From Escherichia phage vB_EcoM_KAW3E185: DNA of 64,000 bases. Positions 5,020 to 62,686 of the stretch are shown in pieces; the stretch's first letter is position 1, and every line of letters starts with the position of its first letter. A model generated the notes under the pieces. It ran no database searches. It was not told the DNA's origin and saw only the letters and a program-made list of their open reading frames with translations. Position numbers and translations under genes: made by a program. The stretch is from sequence record MK373782.1, one strand, 5' to 3'.

Positions 5020-6708
5020 TTATGAAACAGTCATTACCGTAAATCGTCCAACTTTGCTCATTTGAAGATGTTGTCCATAAGCTTGTGGGTCATGGTCTCT
5101 GTGACTAATTATAAACACGTTTGCATCGGTTAGAGAGTTAAGAATTGTTGAAATGGCTTTAATACCTTCGGAATCAGTCGCGGAATCCATGACTTCGTCC
5201 ATAATTAATGTATTGATTCTAACACCAGAGACCTTTTCAGCAATATCTCGCCATGTAAACAACAATGCGATATCGATACGTGCCTTTTCACCTTGACTAA
5301 ATGAAGCATAACTGAACTCTTCACGACCGCGTGATTTTATAGATTCATTGAATTCTTCGTCAATAGAAAACACGTAATCAGCTTCCATGATTTTAAGATA
5401 ATGGTTAATCTGCTTGTTGAACAGAGGCACATATTTTTTAATGATAGCACCTTTAATACCAGAATCTTTTAACATATCTGTGATAATACCACGATGGTAT
5501 TTTTCAAGAACGATATCTGATTTTGTTTTAATGATTTTATCAAGTTCTTTTTGAAGCAAAGCTATCTCATCGGCATGGTCGATAAATTCTGCTGAGGCTT
5601 GCTCTATTGCAGCTTTAACTTTCTTAGCTTTATCAATAGTGGCAATCATTGCTTGTTTCTTGGTACGAATATCAGATGCAAGGTCCTGTTTAGTCTTAAC
5701 ATTAGCTCTATATTCATCAACTAGGACACTCAGATTATCTCTGTGACAGGTAAGTTGCTCGAATGAGTGATTACATTCATGAAGCTTATCGGTAATCTTA
5801 GAGACAATAGGGTCACCCTGGTGCAATTGTGATGCACAAGTAGGACATGTGCCACCGTCATGATACATCTTAATAACTTTGTTATATGAGTCGATTTTAG
5901 ATTTAATCAAGAATGCTTCTTGTCCTATCTTGTTGAATGCCTCAGTAGGGTCTTCATCAAGAACGATATTAAGTAGTCGCTCATTAGCTTCTTCGATTTC
6001 TGCTTTTAATGAACGAGCTTCTTTGGCTAGGTCGTCATACATATTCTGTAGACGCGCTACATTATCACCAGATAATTTCTTTTGACGTTCGATATTCTCA
6101 TTATAAATCTTAATTTGTTGGATAACACCATCTTTCTTGGCATCGAGAACTTGTCCCTGGGAATTAAGTTCTCGAACTTGAGACTTATTGATTTTATCCA
6201 TTTCAGCGAGTGTGCCGACTTCTAAAAGGTCTTCGACAAGTTTTCTACGAGCAGGGGTGCTAAGAGCCATGAAAGGGGTATACCCTGCCGTCCCAAGCAC
6301 AACGATCTGTTTAAAAGACGCGTATGACATTCCGATGCTACGTTCAAATTCTTCTTGGAAGTCACGACTGCTGGCAGATTCATCGAGACGAACACCGTCA
6401 ACGGAGATTTCGAAAATATTGGGCTTTTGGCCGCGTCTAATGAAGTATTTTTTATCATCGAATTCCATCCAAAGCTCAACTAAGAGCTCTTTCTTGTTCG
6501 TGCTATTAATGATTTGTCCTTTCTTAACATCACGAAATGGTTTACCGAAAAGTCCGAAAGTAATGGCTTCTAACATCGTAGATTTACCACCGCCATTTTT
6601 ACCAGTGATTAATGTCTTTTGGACTTTATCTAATTGGATATCAATAGGATTCCCACCTACCGACATGATGTTTTGATAACGAACACGATTTAATTTAAAT
6701 GATTTCAT
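5020..6708 (-). CDS. 46: recombination endonuclease subunit gp46 (SbcC/Rad50-like ATPase, 562 aa)
   Basis: N-terminal Walker A GKNGGGKST; long coiled-coil middle; central CPTC zinc hook; C-terminal ABC signature region; length matches T4 gp46. Confidence 0.9.
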   Translation of the reverse strand: MKSFKLNRVRYQNIMSVGGNPIDIQLDKVQKTLITGKNGGGKSTMLEAITFGLFGKPFRDVKKGQIINSTNKKELLVELWMEFDDKKYFIRRGQKPNIFEISVDGVRLDESASSRDFQEEFERSIGMSYASFKQIVVLGTAGYTPFMALSTPARRKLVEDLLEVGTLAEMDKINKSQVRELNSQGQVLDAKKDGVIQQIKIYNENIERQKKLSGDNVARLQNMYDDLAKEARSLKAEIEEANERLLNIVLDEDPTEAFNKIGQEAFLIKSKIDSYNKVIKMYHDGGTCPTCASQLHQGDPIVSKITDKLHECNHSFEQLTCHRDNLSVLVDEYRANVKTKQDLASDIRTKKQAMIATIDKAKKVKAAIEQASAEFIDHADEIALLQKELDKIIKTKSDIVLEKYHRGIITDMLKDSGIKGAIIKKYVPLFNKQINHYLKIMEADYVFSIDEEFNESIKSRGREEFSYASFSQGEKARIDIALLFTWRDIAEKVSGVRINTLIMDEVMDSATDSEGIKAISTILNSLTDANVFIISHRDHDPQAYGQHLQMSKVGRFTVMTVS

Positions 6709-6953
6709 ATGTATTCTCTTCGAATGAAGTCCTCTACATATTTTAACATGTCATCTCTATCAGCAAAATATTCATCTAGTTCCGCATACATAACAACACC
6801 TGGTGCATACTCGCAAGTAACATACATTGTTCCAAAGAAACGAGGAGTTGATTCCTCGTAATTCTCAGTCCATTCAACGATGCCAATATAACCGTCACCA
6901 ATACTAAATTCATGACGATGGATTTCATAATCAGTCTTCGTCATTATACGCAT
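6705..6953 (-). CDS. hypothetical protein, 46.1 position
   Basis: Small ORF between 47 and 46; ORF-track start is TTG, first ATG at 6953. Confidence 0.45.
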   Translation of the reverse strand: MRIMTKTDYEIHRHEFSIGDGYIGIVEWTENYEESTPRFFGTMYVTCEYAPGVVMYAELDEYFADRDDMLKYVEDFIRREYI

Positions 6954-7188: not shown

Positions 7189-8204
7189 TGTGTTGCCTCA
7201 ATATAAAGTTCGTTGGAATATTTGACCAGCGCTTCTCTGTCTTCGTCTGAGATATCTGGAATCGCGTCAATATATTCTTTAATGATATCTTGAAGTGATT
7301 TAATCTCGATTTCCTGGTCATCATCAGATTCAACACTGTTATCAACTTTAGAAACCATACGAAGAGAGTGAACTACTTTTTCAAGTTCAGATTCAAACTT
7401 AGTCAACTCTGAATCAATTTCTGATACTATAACACGTACGGCTAGATTAGTATAATCAGAATAATTGATTTTGCCTTTAAACGGATAAGTGATTCGTCGA
7501 TGCCATGTTGTTTCATTAGGAATAAATTCCATACGTTCAACATCAGTGTCAAATACCCAGAATCCGCGCGGGTCGTTCTCATCGCCTGCAGTAAGGGTCC
7601 ATGGTGTCCCAATATATTTGACGTTAGCAGCTTCAGAGATTGTGTGGAAGTGGCCGGACCAGACTTGTTTATAGGTCTTTAAGAAATCAGGTTCAAGCCC
7701 ATGAGACTTCATTCCTTTATAGAAATAAAAGCCATTCAGTTCCCAGTGCCCAACACAATACGCTGCGGAAGAAGTCTTGATGTGCTCTAAGATTTCACCT
7801 GTATTTTCTTCACACATCCATGGAACGATATCAATCAGACATCCGTCAAAATCTACAGTAGTTGGATGTTCGTAAATAGTAAAGTTTTCAAATTGAGTTA
7901 ACAATTCAGAAACAGTGTTAGGTGTTATTGTATTCTTAAACGCCATGTCATGGTTTCCTATCGTGACATGAACGTGAATGCCTGCTTTAGAAATCATATC
8001 AACGATTTCACGATTGAATTCCATTGTACGATGTGTTATTGCTTTACGGACGTCAAACCAATCACCATACTGAATCCAAGTTTTAATCCCGTGTTTCTTA
8101 GAGTATTCAATTGCTTGACGAATACCATCACGTTGAATATCTTGAACCCATGGGTCGTCTTGTTTGACTCCGATATGGAAGTCGCCTAAGTGCAAAATTT
8201 TCAT
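7185..8204 (-). CDS. 47: recombination endonuclease subunit gp47 (SbcD/Mre11-like, 339 aa)
   Basis: Calcineurin-like phosphoesterase motifs (LHLGDFH near N-terminus, GNHD, GHWE, GHFH); length matches T4 gp47. Confidence 0.9.
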   Translation of the reverse strand: MKILHLGDFHIGVKQDDPWVQDIQRDGIRQAIEYSKKHGIKTWIQYGDWFDVRKAITHRTMEFNREIVDMISKAGIHVHVTIGNHDMAFKNTITPNTVSELLTQFENFTIYEHPTTVDFDGCLIDIVPWMCEENTGEILEHIKTSSAAYCVGHWELNGFYFYKGMKSHGLEPDFLKTYKQVWSGHFHTISEAANVKYIGTPWTLTAGDENDPRGFWVFDTDVERMEFIPNETTWHRRITYPFKGKINYSDYTNLAVRVIVSEIDSELTKFESELEKVVHSLRMVSKVDNSVESDDDQEIEIKSLQDIIKEYIDAIPDISDEDREALVKYSNELYIEATQ

Positions 8205-18931: not shown

Positions 18932-19191
18932 TTAAAATATTCTCGCAGTTGGTCAAATCCACCAATATGACTTCCATCAGGAGCAAATACCTGAGGCATA
19001 GTCAATCCAACTTGTGATTCACGTCCTAGTTTATTCAGAAGCTCGTCAATTTTTTCTTCATCAAATACACCTTTCTCTGGCATCACGTTAATGAATTCGA
19101 ACGGCTGTTTCTTAACAGTCAGCAATCGTTTCGCATTATCACAATAAATGCATTTATGAATAGTAGAGTCATACCCGTACACTTTAAACAT
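18928..19191 (-). CDS. nrdC: phage thioredoxin/glutaredoxin NrdC (87 aa)
   Basis: ATG at 19191 gives MFKVYGYDSTIHKCIYCDNAKRLL...HIGGFDQLREYFK, near-identical to recalled T4 NrdC with its CxxC site. Confidence 0.9.
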   Translation of the reverse strand: MFKVYGYDSTIHKCIYCDNAKRLLTVKKQPFEFINVMPEKGVFDEEKIDELLNKLGRESQVGLTMPQVFAPDGSHIGGFDQLREYFK

Positions 19192-19597
19192 TATTTTTCC
19201 TTTCATCAATTAAATATGCAATGCCAAATACAATACATGTAATAAAACCTGTGATACAGATAGAAACCAACAACACTGTACCAAAGAACCAAATCAAGTT
19301 ATCTTTAGTAGTTTGTTTGATATCCATCTCACGAATTTCTATAGCTATCGTATCACCTTTATTCAGAAGCGTATAAAACGATGGCGATACACGCCTGTCA
19401 AAAACTCGTCCTTGCTCATCTTTATAGACTGCAATAAATTCTAATTTAGAATATTTTCCTGTAGATTGACCTGAGATTAGCTCTACTACCTCCACAGGAA
19501 TTACTTTAGTTTCCATGTAAGTATTTTGGCTGTTCCAAATGAATGGAATAATAGCAAAAACTAAAGCTGCGATAAAACAACGAAGGCTATATCTCAT
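19184..19597 (-). CDS. hypothetical membrane protein (137 aa)
   Basis: Hydrophobic segments at both ends; ATG start. Confidence 0.5.
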   Translation of the reverse strand: MRYSLRCFIAALVFAIIPFIWNSQNTYMETKVIPVEVVELISGQSTGKYSKLEFIAVYKDEQGRVFDRRVSPSFYTLLNKGDTIAIEIREMDIKQTTKDNLIWFFGTVLLVSICITGFITCIVFGIAYLIDERKNNV

Positions 19598-19902
19598 TAT
19601 AATGTTCTCTCAAATTTGTGGAAGCATTTACGGCATTTCAATTTCAAGTTATCAGTGGTCCAGTTAACCAGTTGGACTTGGATAGTTCCACATTCCGGGC
19701 ATGGATGTTTTGCTGCCGATTTGGCAGCATTTTCACGTCGTTCAACCATTTTCATTATTTCGTTCCATGCCGGAGGAACGAACTCTTCTTCACCGTGGAT
19801 TTTATCTCGCTGAACAAATTCAATCTTTGAACTATCGTCAATAAACTTAACCAAGCGGTGATTAGTGCTCATATCAATATCCTCTAAAAGGCGTAGTTTC
19901 AT
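19597..19902 (-). CDS. hypothetical zinc-ribbon protein (101 aa)
   Basis: CPECG...CRKC cysteine pairs near the C-terminus. Confidence 0.5.
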   Translation of the reverse strand: MKLRLLEDIDMSTNHRLVKFIDDSSKIEFVQRDKIHGEEEFVPPAWNEIMKMVERRENAAKSAAKHPCPECGTIQVQLVNWTTDNLKLKCRKCFHKFERTL

Positions 19903-20852
19903 TATAACACCTCAATGGCATTTCGTAAACCATCCGCTTTCGCATTCAGAGCTTTTAACGATTTAGTTTGTTCTGCAATCTGGGCTTCGACTTCTTTCAG
20001 ACGAGATTTGAGATATTCGCGTTCTTCTCTTAAGTTATCAACTTTTTCTGCTTTAGGCTCTTTAATAGACTTAGGCTTATACTCGTTAGGGTTCTTCAAC
20101 TTAATTTGAATGCGAGAACTGTATAACATTGAACCATTATCTTCGGTTTCATCATACATTTCTACCACGTCCATGATTCTTAACATCATGCGAAGTTTAT
20201 AAGACAGCGAACGAATGGTTTTATTGTGCTTCTTAATTTCTTCAACTTTCATGGTGCCGAGATTACGTGAGTAATAATAAGGAACCTGAATATCAATTGA
20301 TAATGATGCGGTACCATTACCGGTTGGTTTGAACACTGCAGTAACCCAATCTTTAGCATGAACTGTATTTGTACGATCATCGCCGCCTGTGAATAATTTA
20401 CGAGAATGTTTAAAAAGCATATTCACTTGGTTATTGAATTCACAAGCAAATTTATCAGCAAATTTAGTTTCAGGAATGGTAGTTAACCAATCAGCCAAAT
20501 GAGTCTTTTTAACATCATTAACAATAGTGAATTCAACCAAATCGGTTTTAGATGTCACAGATTTAATAAAGCTCGGCTTCATAAAGTTTTTAATGTTATC
20601 GCGAGCTACAGTAGAAGATAATAAACGAGAACGTTTGAACCATTGAAGCAGTGTCCCTAATGAATGAGAATATGCATTTTGAGTATCTTTACAGATATGA
20701 TTTTCTTGGCCTATGTATGTACCAAAATCTCGAAGAATACCACTTACTACATCTCGGTGTGGAACATCAAATCCTAGTACACCAGAAGCACGTTGGGCAT
20801 GAACGTTAGCGATAAGACCTGCAAAGTATTCAATGTAATGTGAACGTGTCAT
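19902..20852 (-). CDS. hypothetical protein with C-terminal coiled coil (316 aa)
   Basis: ATG start; heptad-like C-terminal 60 aa; promoter cassette immediately upstream. Confidence 0.55.
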   Translation of the reverse strand: MTRSHYIEYFAGLIANVHAQRASGVLGFDVPHRDVVSGILRDFGTYIGQENHICKDTQNAYSHSLGTLLQWFKRSRLLSSTVARDNIKNFMKPSFIKSVTSKTDLVEFTIVNDVKKTHLADWLTTIPETKFADKFACEFNNQVNMLFKHSRKLFTGGDDRTNTVHAKDWVTAVFKPTGNGTASLSIDIQVPYYYSRNLGTMKVEEIKKHNKTIRSLSYKLRMMLRIMDVVEMYDETEDNGSMLYSSRIQIKLKNPNEYKPKSIKEPKAEKVDNLREEREYLKSRLKEVEAQIAEQTKSLKALNAKADGLRNAIEVL

Positions 20853-20880
20853 AATATTTTCCTCTCGTTAAGATAAATTC

Positions 20881-20910
20881 ATTATACTCCAACCATCCTT
20901 GGTTGTAAAC
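20881..20910 (-). promoter_or_regulatory. early promoter cassette with spacer hairpin (minus strand)
   Basis: Minus strand reads GTTTAC-aCAACCAaggaTGGTTGgag-TATAAT; the 26-bp core is identical at 21901..21926. Confidence 0.55.
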
Positions 20911-20914
20911 TGAT

Positions 20915-21874
20915 TTATGATTTTAACGCATTCATTGCGTTAAAAAGTTTAGAATACTGCAACTGGAGATTCGTTACAACACTTTGAGCATCACGAAGCT
21001 TAGCTTGTGCTTTGTCAAGTTCAACAGACAGTTGGTCCATAGTGGCCTTGATTTGATTGTAATGGTAATCTTCGGCCGGAAGAAGGTCATTAGAAACATT
21101 TAGTTTTACTGCAGACAGTTTGCACACATTTGGCAAACCTTTAAACATTGATTTACCCGAAGTAGAATAAGCACTTAGGACTTCGGCCTGTTCAATTGGG
21201 GTCCCAGTAAGCGATGCTTCAAACAATGCATTTTCCTTTTTAAGATTTTGATAGTATTCAGAGTCTTTGTGCCACCATGGCGCAGGAACCTTTTTACCAA
21301 TAGATACACGAGCCTGGATAGCGATATTGCCCTTATTCTTGATAGGGTCGATAATATTAAGCTCACGAGAATAAATTGCTTTAATCTGGTGAATATTATC
21401 ACCTAACACTTCCAACGCTTGGTGGAATACACGAGCAACGTTATCATTCTTAGGTTTATACGTAAGAGTGAACTCGTTCTCACTGATAACCATGATTTCC
21501 AACTTATCGTAAGTATATTTCAAATGTTTCATGTTAATTGCTTGAGGACGAATACGAGAAGCAATGGCCATCAGATTGTTAAGGTTATTCCGGAACTGCT
21601 TAGCGAAATATTGTCCTTCACCGCCAATACAAAAATTACGAAGTTTCTGTTTGGCCAATAAACGGCTGAACTCGCCATTTTTAATGAACTCTTTAACGGG
21701 TGTGTTAGTAACGCATTCAAATTGAGTAAACTTACGAGAATTAATCCCATAATACGAACAGATTTCCTCAATCTCTTCAGGAGTCTTTACAGGCATACGG
21801 ATAGGATTAGGTCCTGGAGTATATGCGTTCGAGGTAAATTCTTTGATAAGTTCTCTACGTGTAATAAAAGCCAT
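20915..21874 (-). CDS. hypothetical protein with C-terminal coiled coil (319 aa)
   Basis: ATG start; same promoter cassette upstream. Confidence 0.55.
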   Translation of the reverse strand: MAFITRRELIKEFTSNAYTPGPNPIRMPVKTPEEIEEICSYYGINSRKFTQFECVTNTPVKEFIKNGEFSRLLAKQKLRNFCIGGEGQYFAKQFRNNLNNLMAIASRIRPQAINMKHLKYTYDKLEIMVISENEFTLTYKPKNDNVARVFHQALEVLGDNIHQIKAIYSRELNIIDPIKNKGNIAIQARVSIGKKVPAPWWHKDSEYYQNLKKENALFEASLTGTPIEQAEVLSAYSTSGKSMFKGLPNVCKLSAVKLNVSNDLLPAEDYHYNQIKATMDQLSVELDKAQAKLRDAQSVVTNLQLQYSKLFNAMNALKS

Positions 21875-21900
21875 TTTATATTCCTCATGTTGAAAAATTT

Positions 21901-21930
21901 ATTATACTCCAACCATCCTTGGTTGTACAT
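21901..21930 (-). promoter_or_regulatory. early promoter cassette with spacer hairpin (minus strand), second copy
   Basis: TGTACA-aCCAAGGATGGTTGgag-TATAAT; duplicate of the 20881 cassette. Confidence 0.55.
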
Positions 21931-22925
21931 CATTCCTTAAGAAGTTTTACTACTTGAATAAGATTAGCTCGTTCTGTTTTATTTTTACCGTTTAAGCCTG
22001 CTAATCGTGAGATTTCATCGTCAGTCTGTTGAATAGTTACATTAAGTTCGTTAATCAAAGCTTCAAAGTATTTGATTTGCTCAGCATGTTTTGATTCAAA
22101 TTTCTGAACCGGAATAACGTCTTGGTTCAGTTCATCAATAAGGTCTTTAAGAGCATCTTCTTGGTTGATATCATATTCAACTTCTTTTATTTCTTCAACG
22201 AGCTCGTCTTTATATCTAACGTCTTTTAGTCCTGGAGCTGGTCCTGAAATCTCTTCTTTAAGAGTACAAACATACCCAATACGGTATCCAACGCCGTCTC
22301 GCTTGATATCAACTTCGTCGATAAATCCACAATGTTTAAGTCCAGAGCCGATTATGTCAAAATATCCTTGACGTCGTCCTTCAAACGTTACACGAACTAC
22401 TAAGACGGTTTTGCCACCGACCTTTTGAAGCTCACATTTATAAAAGTTTGTTGAACCTGAATAACATGGATGAGTTTTAAAGTTCATCTGACGATCTAGG
22501 CCCATTTGTAAACGTGCTGTTACGGCCATAAAACGTGTTTGGTTCTCGTTAAGATGAGCAACAATCCATTTCAAAGGCATTTTACCCTGTTCACGGCCGA
22601 ACAAATCAGTACGTCCTAGATTACGCAGGATGTTGTTAGAGTTAATCATCGACAGAACGTTAAGTTTATTCAGCGCGCTGAAGATTCCATCAGCCATTGA
22701 TTTTCCATAACCTTTACACGCTTTAATAAGTGCTCGCGGCAGATTAGTATAGATTTCAGACGGCATATGAAAATCAAATTTACTAACCAGTAATTGATGA
22801 ACTTGGATAGCAATTTGTTCATAATTAAGTGCTCTGCGATCGTTATGGTCTTTAAACCACACTTTAATCTGTGAAGCACATAAACCGTTAATTTCATGTT
22901 TTACCGCATCAGATGTAATGCTCAT
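21930..22925 (-). CDS. hypothetical protein with C-terminal coiled coil (331 aa)
   Basis: ATG start; upstream carries a GCTTTA box 13 nt from TATAAT (middle-promoter-like, weak). Confidence 0.55.
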   Translation of the reverse strand: MSITSDAVKHEINGLCASQIKVWFKDHNDRRALNYEQIAIQVHQLLVSKFDFHMPSEIYTNLPRALIKACKGYGKSMADGIFSALNKLNVLSMINSNNILRNLGRTDLFGREQGKMPLKWIVAHLNENQTRFMAVTARLQMGLDRQMNFKTHPCYSGSTNFYKCELQKVGGKTVLVVRVTFEGRRQGYFDIIGSGLKHCGFIDEVDIKRDGVGYRIGYVCTLKEEISGPAPGLKDVRYKDELVEEIKEVEYDINQEDALKDLIDELNQDVIPVQKFESKHAEQIKYFEALINELNVTIQQTDDEISRLAGLNGKNKTERANLIQVVKLLKE

Positions 22926-22987
22926 AACTATTTCCTCAGATTGAATTGGAACTCAAAACCATTATAACCCGTCCTTGGGTAAAGCGT

Positions 22988-23515
22988 TTATGCGTGAACC
23001 GTCTTTAAACGTTCTTCAAATTTCCGAAGAGTACTAATACGTTCTGCTTTCTGTTTTGTATAGTTTGCAATACGTTCTGAAGTGAGAGCGTATCGTTCGT
23101 TTACTGATTCTTTCATGAAGTCAGGGATTTCACGAGAAGCTTTAATTTCATCAAACTTATCGAGTACTGCCTGGTCTTCAGCGATTAAATTTTCGTACAT
23201 CTCGATATCTTTCTTGATAAACTCGATATCTTCCTGGGTTACTTTGGATAAACGAGATGCTTTATCCTTTTTGTACTGCTCGTTAGTTTCACGAGACCAG
23301 AATAATGTACGTTTTTTGTTAGTGTTTTTGTAGACTTCCACAATTCCAACTGAATCGATGATAACAATCCAATTCCAGCGAGATTTGAAAATCTGACCTC
23401 CGTCCACGGTAATCTCGTTACCATAAGCAACGTCATTAAAGAACTTGCTTTGTGCTTCAGATTTAAATTTACCGTCGTTATAATTTACCAGGTTGAAAAT
23501 ATCTTTAGCGTTCAT
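22988..23515 (-). CDS. hypothetical protein (175 aa)
   Basis: ATG start; GGAGG upstream. Confidence 0.5.
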   Translation of the reverse strand: MNAKDIFNLVNYNDGKFKSEAQSKFFNDVAYGNEITVDGGQIFKSRWNWIVIIDSVGIVEVYKNTNKKRTLFWSRETNEQYKKDKASRLSKVTQEDIEFIKKDIEMYENLIAEDQAVLDKFDEIKASREIPDFMKESVNERYALTSERIANYTKQKAERISTLRKFEERLKTVHA

Positions 23516-24684: not shown

Positions 24685-24723
24685 GATAGGACTACTATAA
24701 TATAGTCCTACCAAGATGTAAAC
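24685..24723 (-). promoter_or_regulatory. early promoter with inverted repeat GATAGGACTA/TAGTCCTA around the -10 (minus strand)
   Basis: GTTTAC-18nt-TATAGT, then AAAAC, GGAG and ATG. Confidence 0.5.
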
Positions 24724-39308: not shown

Positions 39309-39338
39309 ACTATAACATAAACTTACTTAGATGTAAAT
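39309..39338 (-). promoter_or_regulatory. early-promoter-like sequence TTTACA-17-TATAGT (minus strand)
   Basis: Sequence pattern only. Confidence 0.35.
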
Positions 39339-39490
39339 TATTTCAACGTCACCTTTAGCGGCTTTATAACCTTCAGCCCAAGATACAACAGAGTTTTTAT
39401 CTGAGGATTCAAATTCAGGCATTGGACTTTCACCAATATTCACACAGTATGTTTCTTCATTTTCATCGAACCAAATAATTAAAGTAGTCA
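39326..39490 (-). CDS. hypothetical small protein (54 aa)
   Basis: ATG at 39490 preceded by GAGGAG; below the ORF-track threshold. Confidence 0.3.
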
Positions 39491-39510
39491 TTTTGTTTAC
39501 TCCTCTGTAG

Positions 39511-39550
39511 TTGATAAGTCTATAGTATCACCATCCTTGGTGCTTGTACA
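39511..39550 (-). promoter_or_regulatory. early promoter cassette with spacer hairpin CACCAaggaTGGTG (minus strand)
   Basis: TGTACA at the -35 position; same CCAAGGATGG core as the 20881 cassette. Confidence 0.45.
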
Positions 39551-59658: not shown

Positions 59659-61238
59659 GTAATAACAATACATACCAACACGTTTCAAATGAATCTATTT
59701 ACGTTGAATTCGACCCTACGGGGTCGAATTTTCCAGACACAGTCACTAATGTCCAAGCCGCATTAGCTGCCATTTCTCCTTCAGGTGTTAATGGCGTACC
59801 GGAAGCAACAACTACTACACCTGGAATTATTCAAATAGCTACTCCACAAGAAGTTATTGATGGATTAGATAATAGTAAAGCTGTTACTCCGGCAACACTG
59901 AATGCTCGTCTACAATATCCTAATGCAACCGAAACTCAATATGGCTTAACTCGTTATGCTACTGAAGATGAAGCAGTAACAGGAACTATTGACGATGCAT
60001 CAATTACTCCGCTTAAATTGAATCAAAAAATAGACAATGTATTTCAGACAAAAGTGTCAACAGAAGCAACAAATGGTGTAATTAAAATTTCAACTTCTGC
60101 TGCGGCATTAGCTGGTTCTGACGATACAACGGCAATGACCCCGTTAAAAACACAACAATTAGCAATTAAACTTATTTCACAAATTGCTCCAAATAATGGT
60201 GACGCCACCGAATCTATTACCGGTGTTGTTCGTTTGGCTACAGTTGCTCAAGCACAACAAGGCACCCTGCGTGAAGGCTATGCAATTTCACCTTATACCT
60301 TTATGAATTCAGTAGCATCAGAAACTAATAAAGGTGTCGTTAAACTAGGGACACAGACTGAAGTAAATAGTAACAACTCTTCGGTTGTAGTGACCGGCGC
60401 AACATTAAACGGGCGTGGTGCTACAACTTCTTTACGTGGAGTTGTTCGTTTAACTACACAAGCGGGTAGCCAATCAGGTGGTGATGGTTCTTCTGCCCTT
60501 GCTTGGAATGCTGATGTTATCCACCAACGAGGCGGACAAACTATTAATGGCACACTTCGCATTAATAATACGTTGACGGTTGGTTCTGGTGGCGCTAATA
60601 TAACGGGTAATGTCAATATGACCGGCGGTTATATTCAAGGCAATCGTATTGTGACTCAAAATGAATTAGACCGAATTCTTCCAGTTGGCGCTATTACAAT
60701 GTGGGCTGCAGATAGTTTACCGAGTTCTGACTGGCGCTTCTGCCACGGTGGGACCGTTTCTGCTTCAGAATGTCCGGTATATGCTTCCAGAATTGGGACA
60801 CGATATGGTGGTAGTTCTTCTAACCCAGGCTTGCCTGATATGCGTGGATTATTTGTTCGCGGCTCAGGTCGTGGTAACCATTTAACTAACCCTAATGTTA
60901 ATGGTAATGACCAATTCGGTAAGCCTCGTCTGGCGGTAGGTTGTACCGGTGGATATGTCGGTGAAGTGCAAAAACAACAGATGTCGTATCATAAGCATGC
61001 TGGTGGTTTTGGCGAACATGACGATTCCGGTGCATTTGGTAATACTCGTCGTTCAAACTTTGTTGGTACTCGTAAAGGACTTGACTGGGATAACCGTTCA
61101 TATTTTACTAACGAAGGATATGAAATTGATCCAGCGTCTCAGCGTAACTCTAAATATACCATGAATCGCCCAGAATTAATTGGAAATGAAACTCGTCCAT
61201 GGAATATTTCTTTAAACTATATCATTAAGGTAAAATAA
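59655..61238 (+). CDS. 12: short tail fiber protein gp12 (527 aa)
   Basis: Length identical to T4 gp12; Gly/Thr-rich repeats and a C-terminal receptor-binding region. Confidence 0.9.
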
Positions 61239-62686
61239 TGGCTGATATAACTCTGGTAGATTTACCATATGTTGACGGCCCGCCAGACGCGGGTCAGAGT
61301 CGTATTGAATGGATTAAAAACGATGAAGAAATAACAGGTGCTGACACAAAATACGGTTCTGAAGGTGTAATGAACCGTCCTATTGTTGAAGTTCAACGTA
61401 ACGTAGAAGCGTTAGATGTTAATATTAAAACTATAGCATCTTCTTTGAATACGGCCAATGAAGATATCAAAGTTATTCAAGGTATTTTAGATGTTTCTGG
61501 GGATGTTGATGCTCTTGCACAGATAGGCCAGAACACCCAAGATATCGATGTCATTAAAGTCACAGTTCAAACCCATGCTAGTGAATTGAATGATTTGAAT
61601 GAACATATTGATGCGAATACTGATGATATTGGTGTTTATAATCAGGAAACAGATTCAGTTTATAGAACGGTTCGTAATGACCTGCTTTGGATTAAAAATG
61701 AATTAGGACAATATACTGGTCAAGATATTAATGGGGTTCCTACTCCAGGAAATGATAGCACTGGTATGAAACGCCGTATTATGACTAATAGCTCCGTAAT
61801 TGTTGACCATGGTGTTCGATTAACTGATTTAGAAACTAAATTTGCTGATTCTGACGTCGGCTCTTTAACTATTGAAGTCGAACACTTGCGCGAAGAAATG
61901 GGGCCTCGTACTTCTTTCACTACTCCAGTGTTTAGTCGTCTTTCCGGTATTGATTTAACTTTGTCGCGTCAAAATGCTGACTTGGATGGCATTAAACAGT
62001 CTATTGGGTATCCTAATACGACTTCTATTATTACTACCACTAATGCAAATAGTTCAGCAATAAATGACATTAATCTTGAGCTCAATCAATCAGGTGGTAT
62101 TAAACCTCGTTTGACTACGGTAGAAACTGCCATTGGCGCTGATGATTTGCCTACTACAATCCAAGGACGTATTAAACTCAATACTGATGCTATCGGAGCA
62201 TTGAACACTGTTGTCGGCTCTGATTCTTCGTCAGGACTGCGTTTTAATGTGTCATGGTTAAATAACGTAGTCGGTGTTGACGCTTCAGGTGGGAAACCGG
62301 AACCAGACGGCTCTTTGCTTTATCGTACTCGAGAGCTTGAAGGAACTATCGGTGGGATGAGTAATGACATTCAGAACATTCAAACTGATGTTGGGACTAA
62401 TTCCACAGGAATTAAGGGTTCTGTAAACACATTAAATACTCTTATAAATGGCACCAACCCAAATGGTTCGACTGTTGAAGAACGCGGTATATTGCCTACA
62501 GTTAAAAGTCATGATATGACAATTAATGGTTTAACTTCTAGAATTGCTACTCTTGAAACTGATTTGGCCGCTGCAGAAGCTGAAATCCAAACTCTTAAGG
62601 ACGCTGGATATATTGAAGATGCTCCTTCAGACGGTAAATTCTATGTTCGCAAAGATGGCGCATGGGTTGAACTTCCTACAGCTTAA
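61238..62686 (+). CDS. wac: fibritin, neck whiskers (482 aa)
   Basis: Long segmented coiled coil; C-terminal foldon-like sequence GYIEDAPSDGKFYVRKDGAWVELPTA. Confidence 0.9.
   Translation: MADITLVDLPYVDGPPDAGQSRIEWIKNDEEITGADTKYGSEGVMNRPIVEVQRNVEALDVNIKTIASSLNTANEDIKVIQGILDVSGDVDALAQIGQNTQDIDVIKVTVQTHASELNDLNEHIDANTDDIGVYNQETDSVYRTVRNDLLWIKNELGQYTGQDINGVPTPGNDSTGMKRRIMTNSSVIVDHGVRLTDLETKFADSDVGSLTIEVEHLREEMGPRTSFTTPVFSRLSGIDLTLSRQNADLDGIKQSIGYPNTTSIITTTNANSSAINDINLELNQSGGIKPRLTTVETAIGADDLPTTIQGRIKLNTDAIGALNTVVGSDSSSGLRFNVSWLNNVVGVDASGGKPEPDGSLLYRTRELEGTIGGMSNDIQNIQTDVGTNSTGIKGSVNTLNTLINGTNPNGSTVEERGILPTVKSHDMTINGLTSRIATLETDLAAAEAEIQTLKDAGYIEDAPSDGKFYVRKDGAWVELPTA

Follow-up and report, generated by a model that had tools for sequence, protein, structure and literature searches.

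Why should three adjacent phage genes of nearly equal length, with bodies that differ from one another, end in the same kind of helical tail and stand behind promoters so alike that two of them contain one exact repeat? The question is raised by positions 19,902 to 22,925 of a stretch of 64,000 nucleotides from Escherichia phage vB_EcoM_KAW3E185 (MK373782.1), which is called the window below. An earlier inspection made from the letters alone (the sequence-only reading) had supposed a serial insertion of cassette-borne modules. The present analysis leads us to regard another history as probable, namely that the genes belong to an ancestral array of promoter-equipped accessory genes, likely serving counter-defence, which is reshuffled by recombination at cassettes resembling the promoter-early stem-loop (PeSL) cassettes of T4-type phages (Arbiol et al. 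2010, PMC2839356).

The three genes lie where the sequence-only reading had placed them, on the minus strand, which carries all genes of the region, and each of them has a counterpart in T4:

22925..21930, minus strand: 331-aa gene, homologue of T4 NrdC.6 (37% identity to T4 NrdC.6 across the N-terminal 139 aa, E 1e-19, BLASTP).
21874..20915, minus strand: 319-aa gene of the DUF7235 / NrdC.5 family (Pfam PF23882; BLASTP to T4 NrdC.5).
20852..19902, minus strand: 316-aa gene, orthologue of T4 NrdC.3 (56% identity over the full length, 317 columns, E 9e-121).

The source phage is a Mosigvirus (RB69-like T-even), and the 3-kb region is 99.6% identical to Mosigvirus genomes such as vB_Eco_NicPhage (99.5% in the case of mar005P1); at least 80% of it is covered by 131 phage records. 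In the annotated record of NBG1, the region has nrdC (thioredoxin) on one side and the NrdC.11 nucleotidyltransferase on the other, and it lies downstream of endonuclease VII; the locus is the nrdC hyperplastic region of T-even phages. The flanking genes NrdC.8 and NrdC.2 are 84% and 51% identical to their T4 counterparts, and the order nrdC.8, nrdC.6, nrdC.5, nrdC.3, nrdC.2 is collinear with T4, minus nrdC.4 and nrdC.7. A pairing by gene order, which would have equated the 331-aa gene with T4 nrdC.5 and the 319-aa gene with nrdC.4, was ruled out by BLASTP, the true partners being nrdC.6 and nrdC.5. As for nrdC.7, it is relocated relative to T4: a 137-aa membrane protein homologous to T4 NrdC.7 (41% identity, E 5e-27) is encoded at 19184-19597 (minus strand), adjoining nrdC, at the T4 position of nrdC.1, the reported Septu inhibitor, no counterpart of which was seen at 19184-19597.

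The 319-aa protein matches Pfam PF23882 (DUF7235) with 411.3 bits (E 3.7e-123; residues 15-318 on model positions 1-307; the gathering score of the family is 30 bits), and T4 NrdC.5 matches the same model with 420.6 bits (E 5e-126). The two proteins share 25% identity across 308 aa (E 3e-11), and the RB69 homologue is named NrdC.5 in its source record. Among Mosigvirus homologues of the 319-aa protein that are otherwise 87-95% identical, the linker before the tail (residues about 215-260; alignment columns 270-320) is hypervariable, with several indels and substitutions. The 331-aa protein matches phrog_2257 (E 6e-127), its relatives carry a precomputed Pfam PF26899, and its C-terminus resembles that of the 295-aa NrdC.6 of other Tequatroviruses, the last 50 aa being 60% identical. 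The 316-aa protein matches phrog_1435, and PF26897, a model outside the Pfam copy that was searched, is precomputed on all 33 of its 33 relatives. DUF7235 on the 319-aa protein was the only Pfam family assigned among the three proteins; NCBIfam gave no match for the three families, neither did PDB sequence searches with all three family profiles, and a word-indexed protein search returned close relatives only. By tblastn, NrdC.3 is present in 653 phage records and the Mosigvirus-type 319-aa protein in 132. An exhaustive HMMER search of 1.84 billion representatives with the NrdC.3 profile retrieved five proteins, which are NrdC.3 proteins or fragments and one NrdC.4-like protein (E 4.8e-6), and a search of IMG/VR yielded seven loci only; judging by these collections, the families are confined to T-even phages.

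What the three proteins have in common is the C-terminal end, where the following segments were delimited:

21933..22100, minus strand: helical, heptad-like tail of the 331-aa protein, about aa 276-331 (heptad scan; interrupted at AGLNGKN).
20918..21079, minus strand: coiled-coil-like helix of the 319-aa protein, aa 266-319 (heptad scan and AlphaFold2).
19905..20030, minus strand: coiled-coil-like helix of the 316-aa protein, aa 275-316 (heptad scan and AlphaFold2).

In the 319-aa protein, heptad windows starting at residues 267-292 scored above all 200 shuffles, and so did those starting at 267-289 in the 316-aa protein. The 331-aa protein, whose helix is broken at AGLNGKN, has a weaker signal, the score of its windows 281-283 being attained in 2 of 200 shuffles. 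A continuous heptad pattern in a long helix is found, in other words, in the 316-aa and 319-aa proteins, and in a weaker and interrupted form in the 331-aa protein. The AlphaFold2 models contain a C-terminal helix at residues 266-318 of the 319-aa protein (predicted local distance difference test, pLDDT, 53-76; overall pLDDT 40 from 18 sequences) and at residues 275-315 of the 316-aa protein (pLDDT 75-84; overall 51 from 29 sequences); the terminal helix is the most confident part of both models, which were built on alignments that are too shallow. The coiled-coil prediction that the sequence-only reading had proposed as a check is thus favourable for the 319-aa and 316-aa tails by both methods and weaker for the 331-aa tail, and a heptad helix does stand at each C-terminus, as it had claimed, although with about 40-55 residues (interrupted in the 331-aa protein) and not with about 60.

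A C-terminal heptad score this high is reached by only 4 of the 72 open reading frames (ORFs) of at least 100 aa in the window, and three of the four are these neighbours. Between genera the last 50 residues are more conserved than the rest (63% vs 53% identity in NrdC.3, 39% vs 19% in NrdC.5, 60% vs 26% in NrdC.6), and the tails share the ending (R/K)xxLxxA(I/L)xxL(K). The array is a real finding, beyond chance. A tail conserved in each family fits a shared role in oligomerisation or partner binding, and we suppose that the fast-changing body tracks a variable target while the tail keeps this constant role. The strongest heptad score in the window belongs to a 482-aa ORF at 61238-62686 (plus strand), which has several coiled segments and is the only other ORF with a C-terminal heptad signal. 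The NrdC.8 homologue just upstream of the array (175 aa, 22988-23515, minus strand) has a helical, weakly heptad-like end (windows 146-148, reached by 8 of 200 shuffles). In the T4 reference (NC_000866), nrdC.6 is annotated as 275 aa with an early stop (region about 8010-8066, minus strand; compare 21930-21990 in the window), and the frame next to it reads on to a stop codon as SKAKSEREKLIKIVDLLKS, resembling the C-terminus of the 295-aa Tequatrovirus NrdC.6 and of the 331-aa protein; the T4 reference gene looks frameshifted, with the loss of its coiled-coil tail.

As to relatedness in a wider sense, NrdC.3 and T4 NrdC.4 are, to judge from sequence comparison, tandem paralogues (BLASTP: 25% identity over 270 aa, E 3e-7; hhalign: probability 93-94%, E 3e-8). 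Between NrdC.3/4 and NrdC.5 the hhalign result is borderline, with E 7e-4 in the local mode, where FACEFNNQVNMLFKHSRKLF is paired with FAKQFRNNLNNLMAIASRIR, and E 2e-4 to 1e-3 in the global mode. A TRxxYIxxF-like start in NrdC.3/4/5, a SRLLSxxxxRDxIxNF-like motif, the shared ending of the tails, and secondary-structure elements that follow one another in much the same way in both low-confidence models are suggestive only. With the 316-aa model as query, Foldseek returned the protein's own orthologue from BFVD and beyond it only matches with low template-modelling scores to similar-size proteins of other T4-like phages; against the PDB there was no match with E < 0.017, apart from a weak trend to YbjN/type III chaperone-like folds, and no conclusion is based on these comparisons.

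The other common feature is the arrangement upstream of the genes, for which these elements were identified, together with one similar promoter elsewhere in the window:

21901..21929, minus strand: promoter cassette copy 1, before the 319-aa gene; -35 box TGTACA (21929..21924), 17-nt spacer, -10 box TATAAT (21906..21901).
21924..21911, minus strand: spacer hairpin of copy 1, AACCA-AGGA-TGGTT, then GGAG (21910..21907).
20881..20909, minus strand: promoter cassette copy 2, before the 316-aa gene; -35 box TTTACA (20909..20904), 17-nt spacer, -10 box TATAAT (20886..20881).
20904..20891, minus strand: spacer hairpin of copy 2, (C)AACCA-AGGA-TGGTT(G), then GGAG (20890..20887).
22961..22985, minus strand: middle-promoter-like site before the 331-aa gene; GCTTTA (22985..22980), 13-nt spacer, TATAAT (22966..22961).
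22980..22967, minus strand: imperfect hairpin ACCCA-AGGA-CGGGT in the spacer of the middle-promoter-like site.
22937..22932, minus strand: Shine-Dalgarno (SD) sequence GAGGAA before the 331-aa gene, from reading of the sequence.
39518..39550, minus strand: fourth promoter of the same class; TGTACA, hairpin CACCA-AGGA-TGGTG, TATAGA; before a 54-aa ORF (39491..39327).

The two downstream genes had been described as preceded by the same promoter cassette of 26 bp. The repeat is indeed exact, its length being 27 bp: TACAACCAAGGATGGTTGGAGTATAAT, at 21927..21901 and 20907..20881, that is, two copies in 64 kb against 0.00 expected from 100 shuffles. The stop codon TGA of the 331-aa gene overlaps the -35 box of copy 1. 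Copy 2 agrees at 11 of 12 positions with a sigma-70-type promoter, better than any other site between 17 and 27 kb, and the record of phage NBG1 has a promoter annotated there. GAGGAA stands 6-7 nt upstream of each ATG. The GCTTTA-TATAAT sequence reported before the upstream gene is likewise present. MotA boxes have the form (a/t)(a/t)(a/t)TGCTT(t/c)A, centred near -30 and lying 11-13 bp upstream of a TAnnnT -10 box; the site of the 331-aa gene reads aaaCGCTTTA-13-TATAAT, so that the GCTT core and the spacing fit a MotA-type promoter, and the base before GCTT, a C in place of T, does not. A homologous middle-like site is found before T4 nrdC.7 (GCTTTA-12-TATAAT, with the hairpin TACCA-AGGA-TGGTA).

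All three upstream regions, the 39.5-kb promoter, and the T4 nrdC.3, nrdC.4, and nrdC.7 sites have in common a 5-bp inverted repeat, which encloses an AGGA loop and is located in the spacer that separates the -10 box from the -35 or MotA box. The stem of this repeat occurs in variants with coupled outer positions (AACCA/TGGTT, CACCA/TGGTG, TACCA/TGGTA, AGCCA/TGGCT, CCACA/TGTGG): at the T4 site before nrdC.3, orthologous to copy 2, the stem change is compensatory (AGCCA-AGGA-TGGCT), and in the fourth promoter, far from the nrdC locus, the stem is again perfectly complementary, with a different sequence. Over six distinct cassettes 88.9% of cells are paired, vs 65.6% in shuffles, with both-side changes in four of the six pairs; this covariation score was reached by 0 of 500 shuffles, and slid controls were far lower, the result being supportive, not conclusive, as the sample is small and the sequences are related. 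The RNA hairpin of copy 1 folds with -6.9 kcal/mol. A terminator function of the hairpin was considered and ruled out, as it is weak (-6 to -11 kcal/mol) and has no U-tract; a terminator scan found none on the minus strand at the cassette positions. The distance from hairpin to hairpin is 1056 and 1020 bp here and 1057 bp in T4.

Two further observations concern the promoters. The segment after the hairpin, GGAGUAUAAU(A/G)A (GGAG at 20887-20890 and 21907-21910, minus strand, then UAUAAU(A/G)A), agrees at 9 of 11 positions with the RegB/S1 cleavage consensus GGAGRAYARAA (PMC1702504), and one may speculate that GGAG serves as a processing site in read-through early mRNA. Most other early promoters in the window (GTTTACA-N17-TATAGT or TACTAT, e.g., on the minus strand at 24722, 43182, 36238, 34943, and 23570) have an inverted repeat that flanks the -10 box, as in TAGGACTA..TATAGT AGTCCTA and AGGTCTA..TATTAT AGACCT; its arms covary between promoters, and its geometry differs from that of the spacer hairpin.

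The genomes of related phages record how these units come and go. With a query across the 319-aa gene, genomes are either fully covered or covered at 781 of 1801 bases in two pieces, and the 1020 bp missing from the split genomes equal the spacing of the repeat copies. Counted by a junction probe (intact junction versus split match), the 153 related genomes comprise 132 filled ones, with the 319-aa gene and one cassette as a 1020-bp unit (among them mar005P1 and NBG1), and 21 empty ones with a single cassette (among them p000v, AV114, and F2); the presence/absence comparison suggested by the sequence-only reading has in this way exposed an exact unit. In p000v, the end of the 331-aa gene is followed by TGATG, a single 27-bp cassette, and the 5' leader and start of the 316-aa gene, and the cassette is a hybrid, the left flank of copy 1 being joined to the right flank of copy 2. 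EC121 (2745-2850) is devoid of the 1059-bp nrdC.4 unit; the break lies inside ACTCGTAA, common to the first codons of nrdC.4 and nrdC.3, so that the nrdC.4 promoter should now drive nrdC.3. The match to HY03 has a gap about as large as that of EC121, which is the sole one of the two whose junction was read. In ACG-C40 (5805-6213), a 71-aa N-terminal NrdC.5 fragment runs directly into the final 72 codons of nrdC.3, which have 80.6% identity to the window protein; this is a natural deletion of most of nrdC.5, nrdC.4, and nrdC.3. The array evolves, as these junctions show, by homologous recombination between repeated cassettes and paralogous gene ends. A Tequatrovirus contig of IMG/VR (2974742932, 5910-6942) has nrdC.4 split into ORFs of 193 and 158 aa, an apparent pseudogene, and its nrdC.3 promoter copy has a stem mismatch and a degraded -10 box, TACAAA.

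We read the filled site as ancestral and the empty one as a deletion, because both the gene order and the linkage of the DUF7235 gene to a GTTTAC hairpin promoter match T4, while NrdC.3 and NrdC.4, being tandem paralogues, indicate duplication with unequal crossing-over and not insertion. The array looks ancestral, shaped by duplication and deletion.

What the proteins might do is suggested by work on T4. NrdC.5 of T4 is reported to counteract Dsr1, a SIR2-type defence (Srikant, Guegler and Laub 2022, PMC9391042): a T4 deletion mutant plates again on MG1655 with dsr1 of ECOR17 when nrdC.5 is expressed from a plasmid, and the deleted T4 genes are non-essential on MG1655, the locus being dispensable on K-12 (PMC9391042). 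Another gene of the same locus, T4 nrdC.1, inhibits Septu (bioRxiv 10.1101/2025.11.20.689424). These published results for nrdC.5 and nrdC.1, taken together with the early- and middle-type promoters, the dispensability, the loss in natural isolates, and the fast-evolving bodies, make up the case for accessory host-range or counter-defence genes. On this reasoning a counter-defence role for the array appears to us about as plausible as its absence, and the 319-aa protein becomes, by family membership, a tentative and somewhat doubtful candidate for an anti-Dsr1 factor.

The mechanism that we propose is as follows. Early-gene units of about 1.0 kb (nrdC.6, nrdC.5, nrdC.3) would have been inherited in tandem from a common ancestor with T4, each unit comprising a promoter cassette with a conserved spacer hairpin (two putatively sigma-70-type early, one MotA-type middle-like), a GAGGAA ribosome-binding site, and a gene for a protein of about 320 aa with fast-evolving N-terminal and central parts and a conserved C-terminal coiled-coil-like helix of 40-55 aa. 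Units are gained and lost via homologous recombination between cassettes or between paralogous gene starts. The proteins could be dispensable factors that fit the phage to certain hosts; most likely they would bind defence proteins of the host and so neutralise them, with recognition of the target left to the variable body, and oligomerisation or the binding of a common partner to the conserved tail. A bolder version, which we consider improbable, would unite NrdC.3/.4/.5/.6 in one fast-diverging counter-defence superfamily: the tail would assemble homo- or hetero-oligomers, the variable body, perhaps YbjN/type III chaperone-like, would be directed in each paralogue against another immune protein of the host and would neutralise it in the way that NrdC.5 neutralises Dsr1, and the hairpin promoter would be a dedicated element that drives the units and supplies both a RegB/S1 site (GGAGUAUAAU) and a recombination site for unit swapping.

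The serial insertion put forward by the sequence-only reading would mean that three unrelated foreign modules arrived with their cassettes by integration of PeSL mini-circles and that the empty site is ancestral. Part of that proposal stands, since the cassettes do bound an indel module of 1020 bp, absent from 21 of 153 genomes, with a hybrid cassette at the junction. A hybrid junction with a single cassette is equally expected before the integration of a circle; ESCO47, the most divergent Mosigvirus sampled, has the empty site; a protein only 25% identical to T4 NrdC.5, next to two others without detectable sequence similarity to it or to each other, would suit a foreign origin; and PeSL mini-circles are documented for RB49/phi1 (PMC2839356). 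Yet the filled site also occurs in divergent Mosigviruses such as moha, no donor was found outside T-even phages in the protein searches, the order is collinear with T4, as is the linkage of the 3' end of the DUF7235 gene to the GTTTAC hairpin cassette, and NrdC.3 and NrdC.4 are tandem paralogues; the empty sites are more simply taken as deletions, and serial insertion seems to us unlikely. Less probable still is that the three genes are merely neighbours, with a shared C-terminal coil and similar sizes by coincidence or convergence. Coiled-coil segments are indeed low-complexity and common, and significant similarity across the families is missing; however, of 72 ORFs only four show a C-terminal heptad signal, three of which are these neighbours, every family has its stronger conservation in the tail and not in the body, T4 NrdC.4, the proven paralogue of NrdC.3, has the same plan, and all tails end in a similar motif.

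With regard to function, the proteins could instead help to take over the host or act as housekeeping accessories, e.g., by modifying its transcription, nucleoid, or metabolism, or they could be coiled-coil proteins of a structural or scaffold-like kind; the T4 NrdC.5 result would in that case not apply to them. The profile and Foldseek searches gave no domain or structural match to a known anti-defence protein, the weak coiled-coil-type Pfam matches include a phage scaffold family, and NrdC.3, with its 653 phage records, exceeds many anti-defence genes in conservation. We nevertheless find this rather unlikely, as the promoters are of early or middle and not of late type, the phage can do without the locus on laboratory hosts (PMC9391042), natural isolates have lost the genes, and two genes of the same T4 locus have experimentally demonstrated anti-defence roles. 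Several points weigh against the ancestral counter-defence array that we prefer. The direction of the indel, loss or gain, is deduced from synteny and not from a phylogeny, and the reverse is possible. The three window proteins have no significant pairwise similarity by BLASTP, HMMER, or hhalign, which agrees with the dissimilar N-terminal domains noticed in the sequence-only reading, and hhalign gave nothing for NrdC.6; a common ancestry of all families is possible but unproven. No domain was detected in the functionally uncharacterised NrdC.3 and NrdC.6 by the Pfam, NCBIfam, and PDB profile searches, and 25% identity to T4 NrdC.5 is no guarantee that the 319-aa protein has the same target. 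Models with pLDDT of 40 and 51 leave the fold and the oligomeric state of the tail unestablished, and both the promoter activity of the cassettes and the role of the hairpin are predicted ones.

The function of most T-even accessory genes is not known, though these phages are widely used for therapy and as models, and the array offers candidate host-range genes in a locus that holds two T4 genes shown to defeat Dsr1 and Septu. Isolates that have the 319-aa gene are distinguished from those lacking it by exactly one 1020-bp unit, which makes them a natural experiment on whether the gene decides the range of E. coli strains open to a phage, and the exact junctions demonstrate, to the base pair, the reshuffling of phage accessory genes by repeated promoters. 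The conserved coiled-coil tail provides a biochemical handle for finding the partners of four otherwise opaque families. What is new is a plan with a conserved tail common to four families that lie side by side, the recognition of NrdC.3 and NrdC.4 as paralogues, the natural alleles in which a unit is exactly present or absent, and the covarying hairpin in the promoter spacer. Otherwise the genes fall within families that bear names in T4 but are uncharacterised, and the cassettes are of a mobile promoter type already known.

Comparison with T4 itself reveals both likeness and difference. NrdC.5 of T4 and the 319-aa protein belong to DUF7235 (421 vs 411 bits), align over the full length, and are best conserved in the C-terminal helix; in either genome the gene is located between nrdC.6 and nrdC.3, with a GTTTAC hairpin promoter after it. 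However, T4 nrdC.5 follows nrdC.6 without a promoter, whereas the Mosigvirus gene has its own promoter copy, encodes a protein with 25% identity to the T4 one, is polymorphic for presence and absence in its genus, and is no more than a candidate for anti-Dsr1 activity. NrdC.3 and NrdC.6 of T4, both uncharacterised early ORFs, share position, strand, and size class with the 316-aa and 331-aa proteins; in contrast to the window, T4 possesses nrdC.4, and the NrdC.6 frame of the T4 reference does without the C-terminal tail found in the Mosigvirus gene and in other Tequatrovirus genes. Like the MotA middle promoters of T4, the site before the 331-aa gene has GCTTTA 13 nt upstream of TATAAT, and a homologous site precedes T4 nrdC.7; unlike the consensus MotA box TGCTTtA (PMC4122927), it reads cGCTTTA, the T before GCTT being replaced by C, the same variant as before T4 nrdC.7.

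As for the PeSL cassettes, those published have their stem-loop, a terminator in function, immediately before the promoter (PMC4122927). In the array no stem-loop stands upstream; the stop codon of the preceding gene adjoins or overlaps the -35 box, and a 5-6-bp AGGA-loop hairpin without a U-tract is situated inside the promoter spacer. The likeness is nonetheless considerable. In both cases, strong sigma-70-like early promoters are repeated between non-essential genes of the hyperplastic region and end in an SD sequence and a start codon. Copy 2 (TTTACA-17-TATAAT) fits the early-promoter consensus of the PeSL in the T4/PST group, TTTACW-N17-TAYWAT (Comeau et al. 2014, PMC4122927), and copy 1 (TGTACA-17-TATAAT) has one mismatch to it. 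As with PeSL, the indel breakpoints between related phages, 21 of them empty and 132 filled, fall exactly in the repeat, here of 27 bp.

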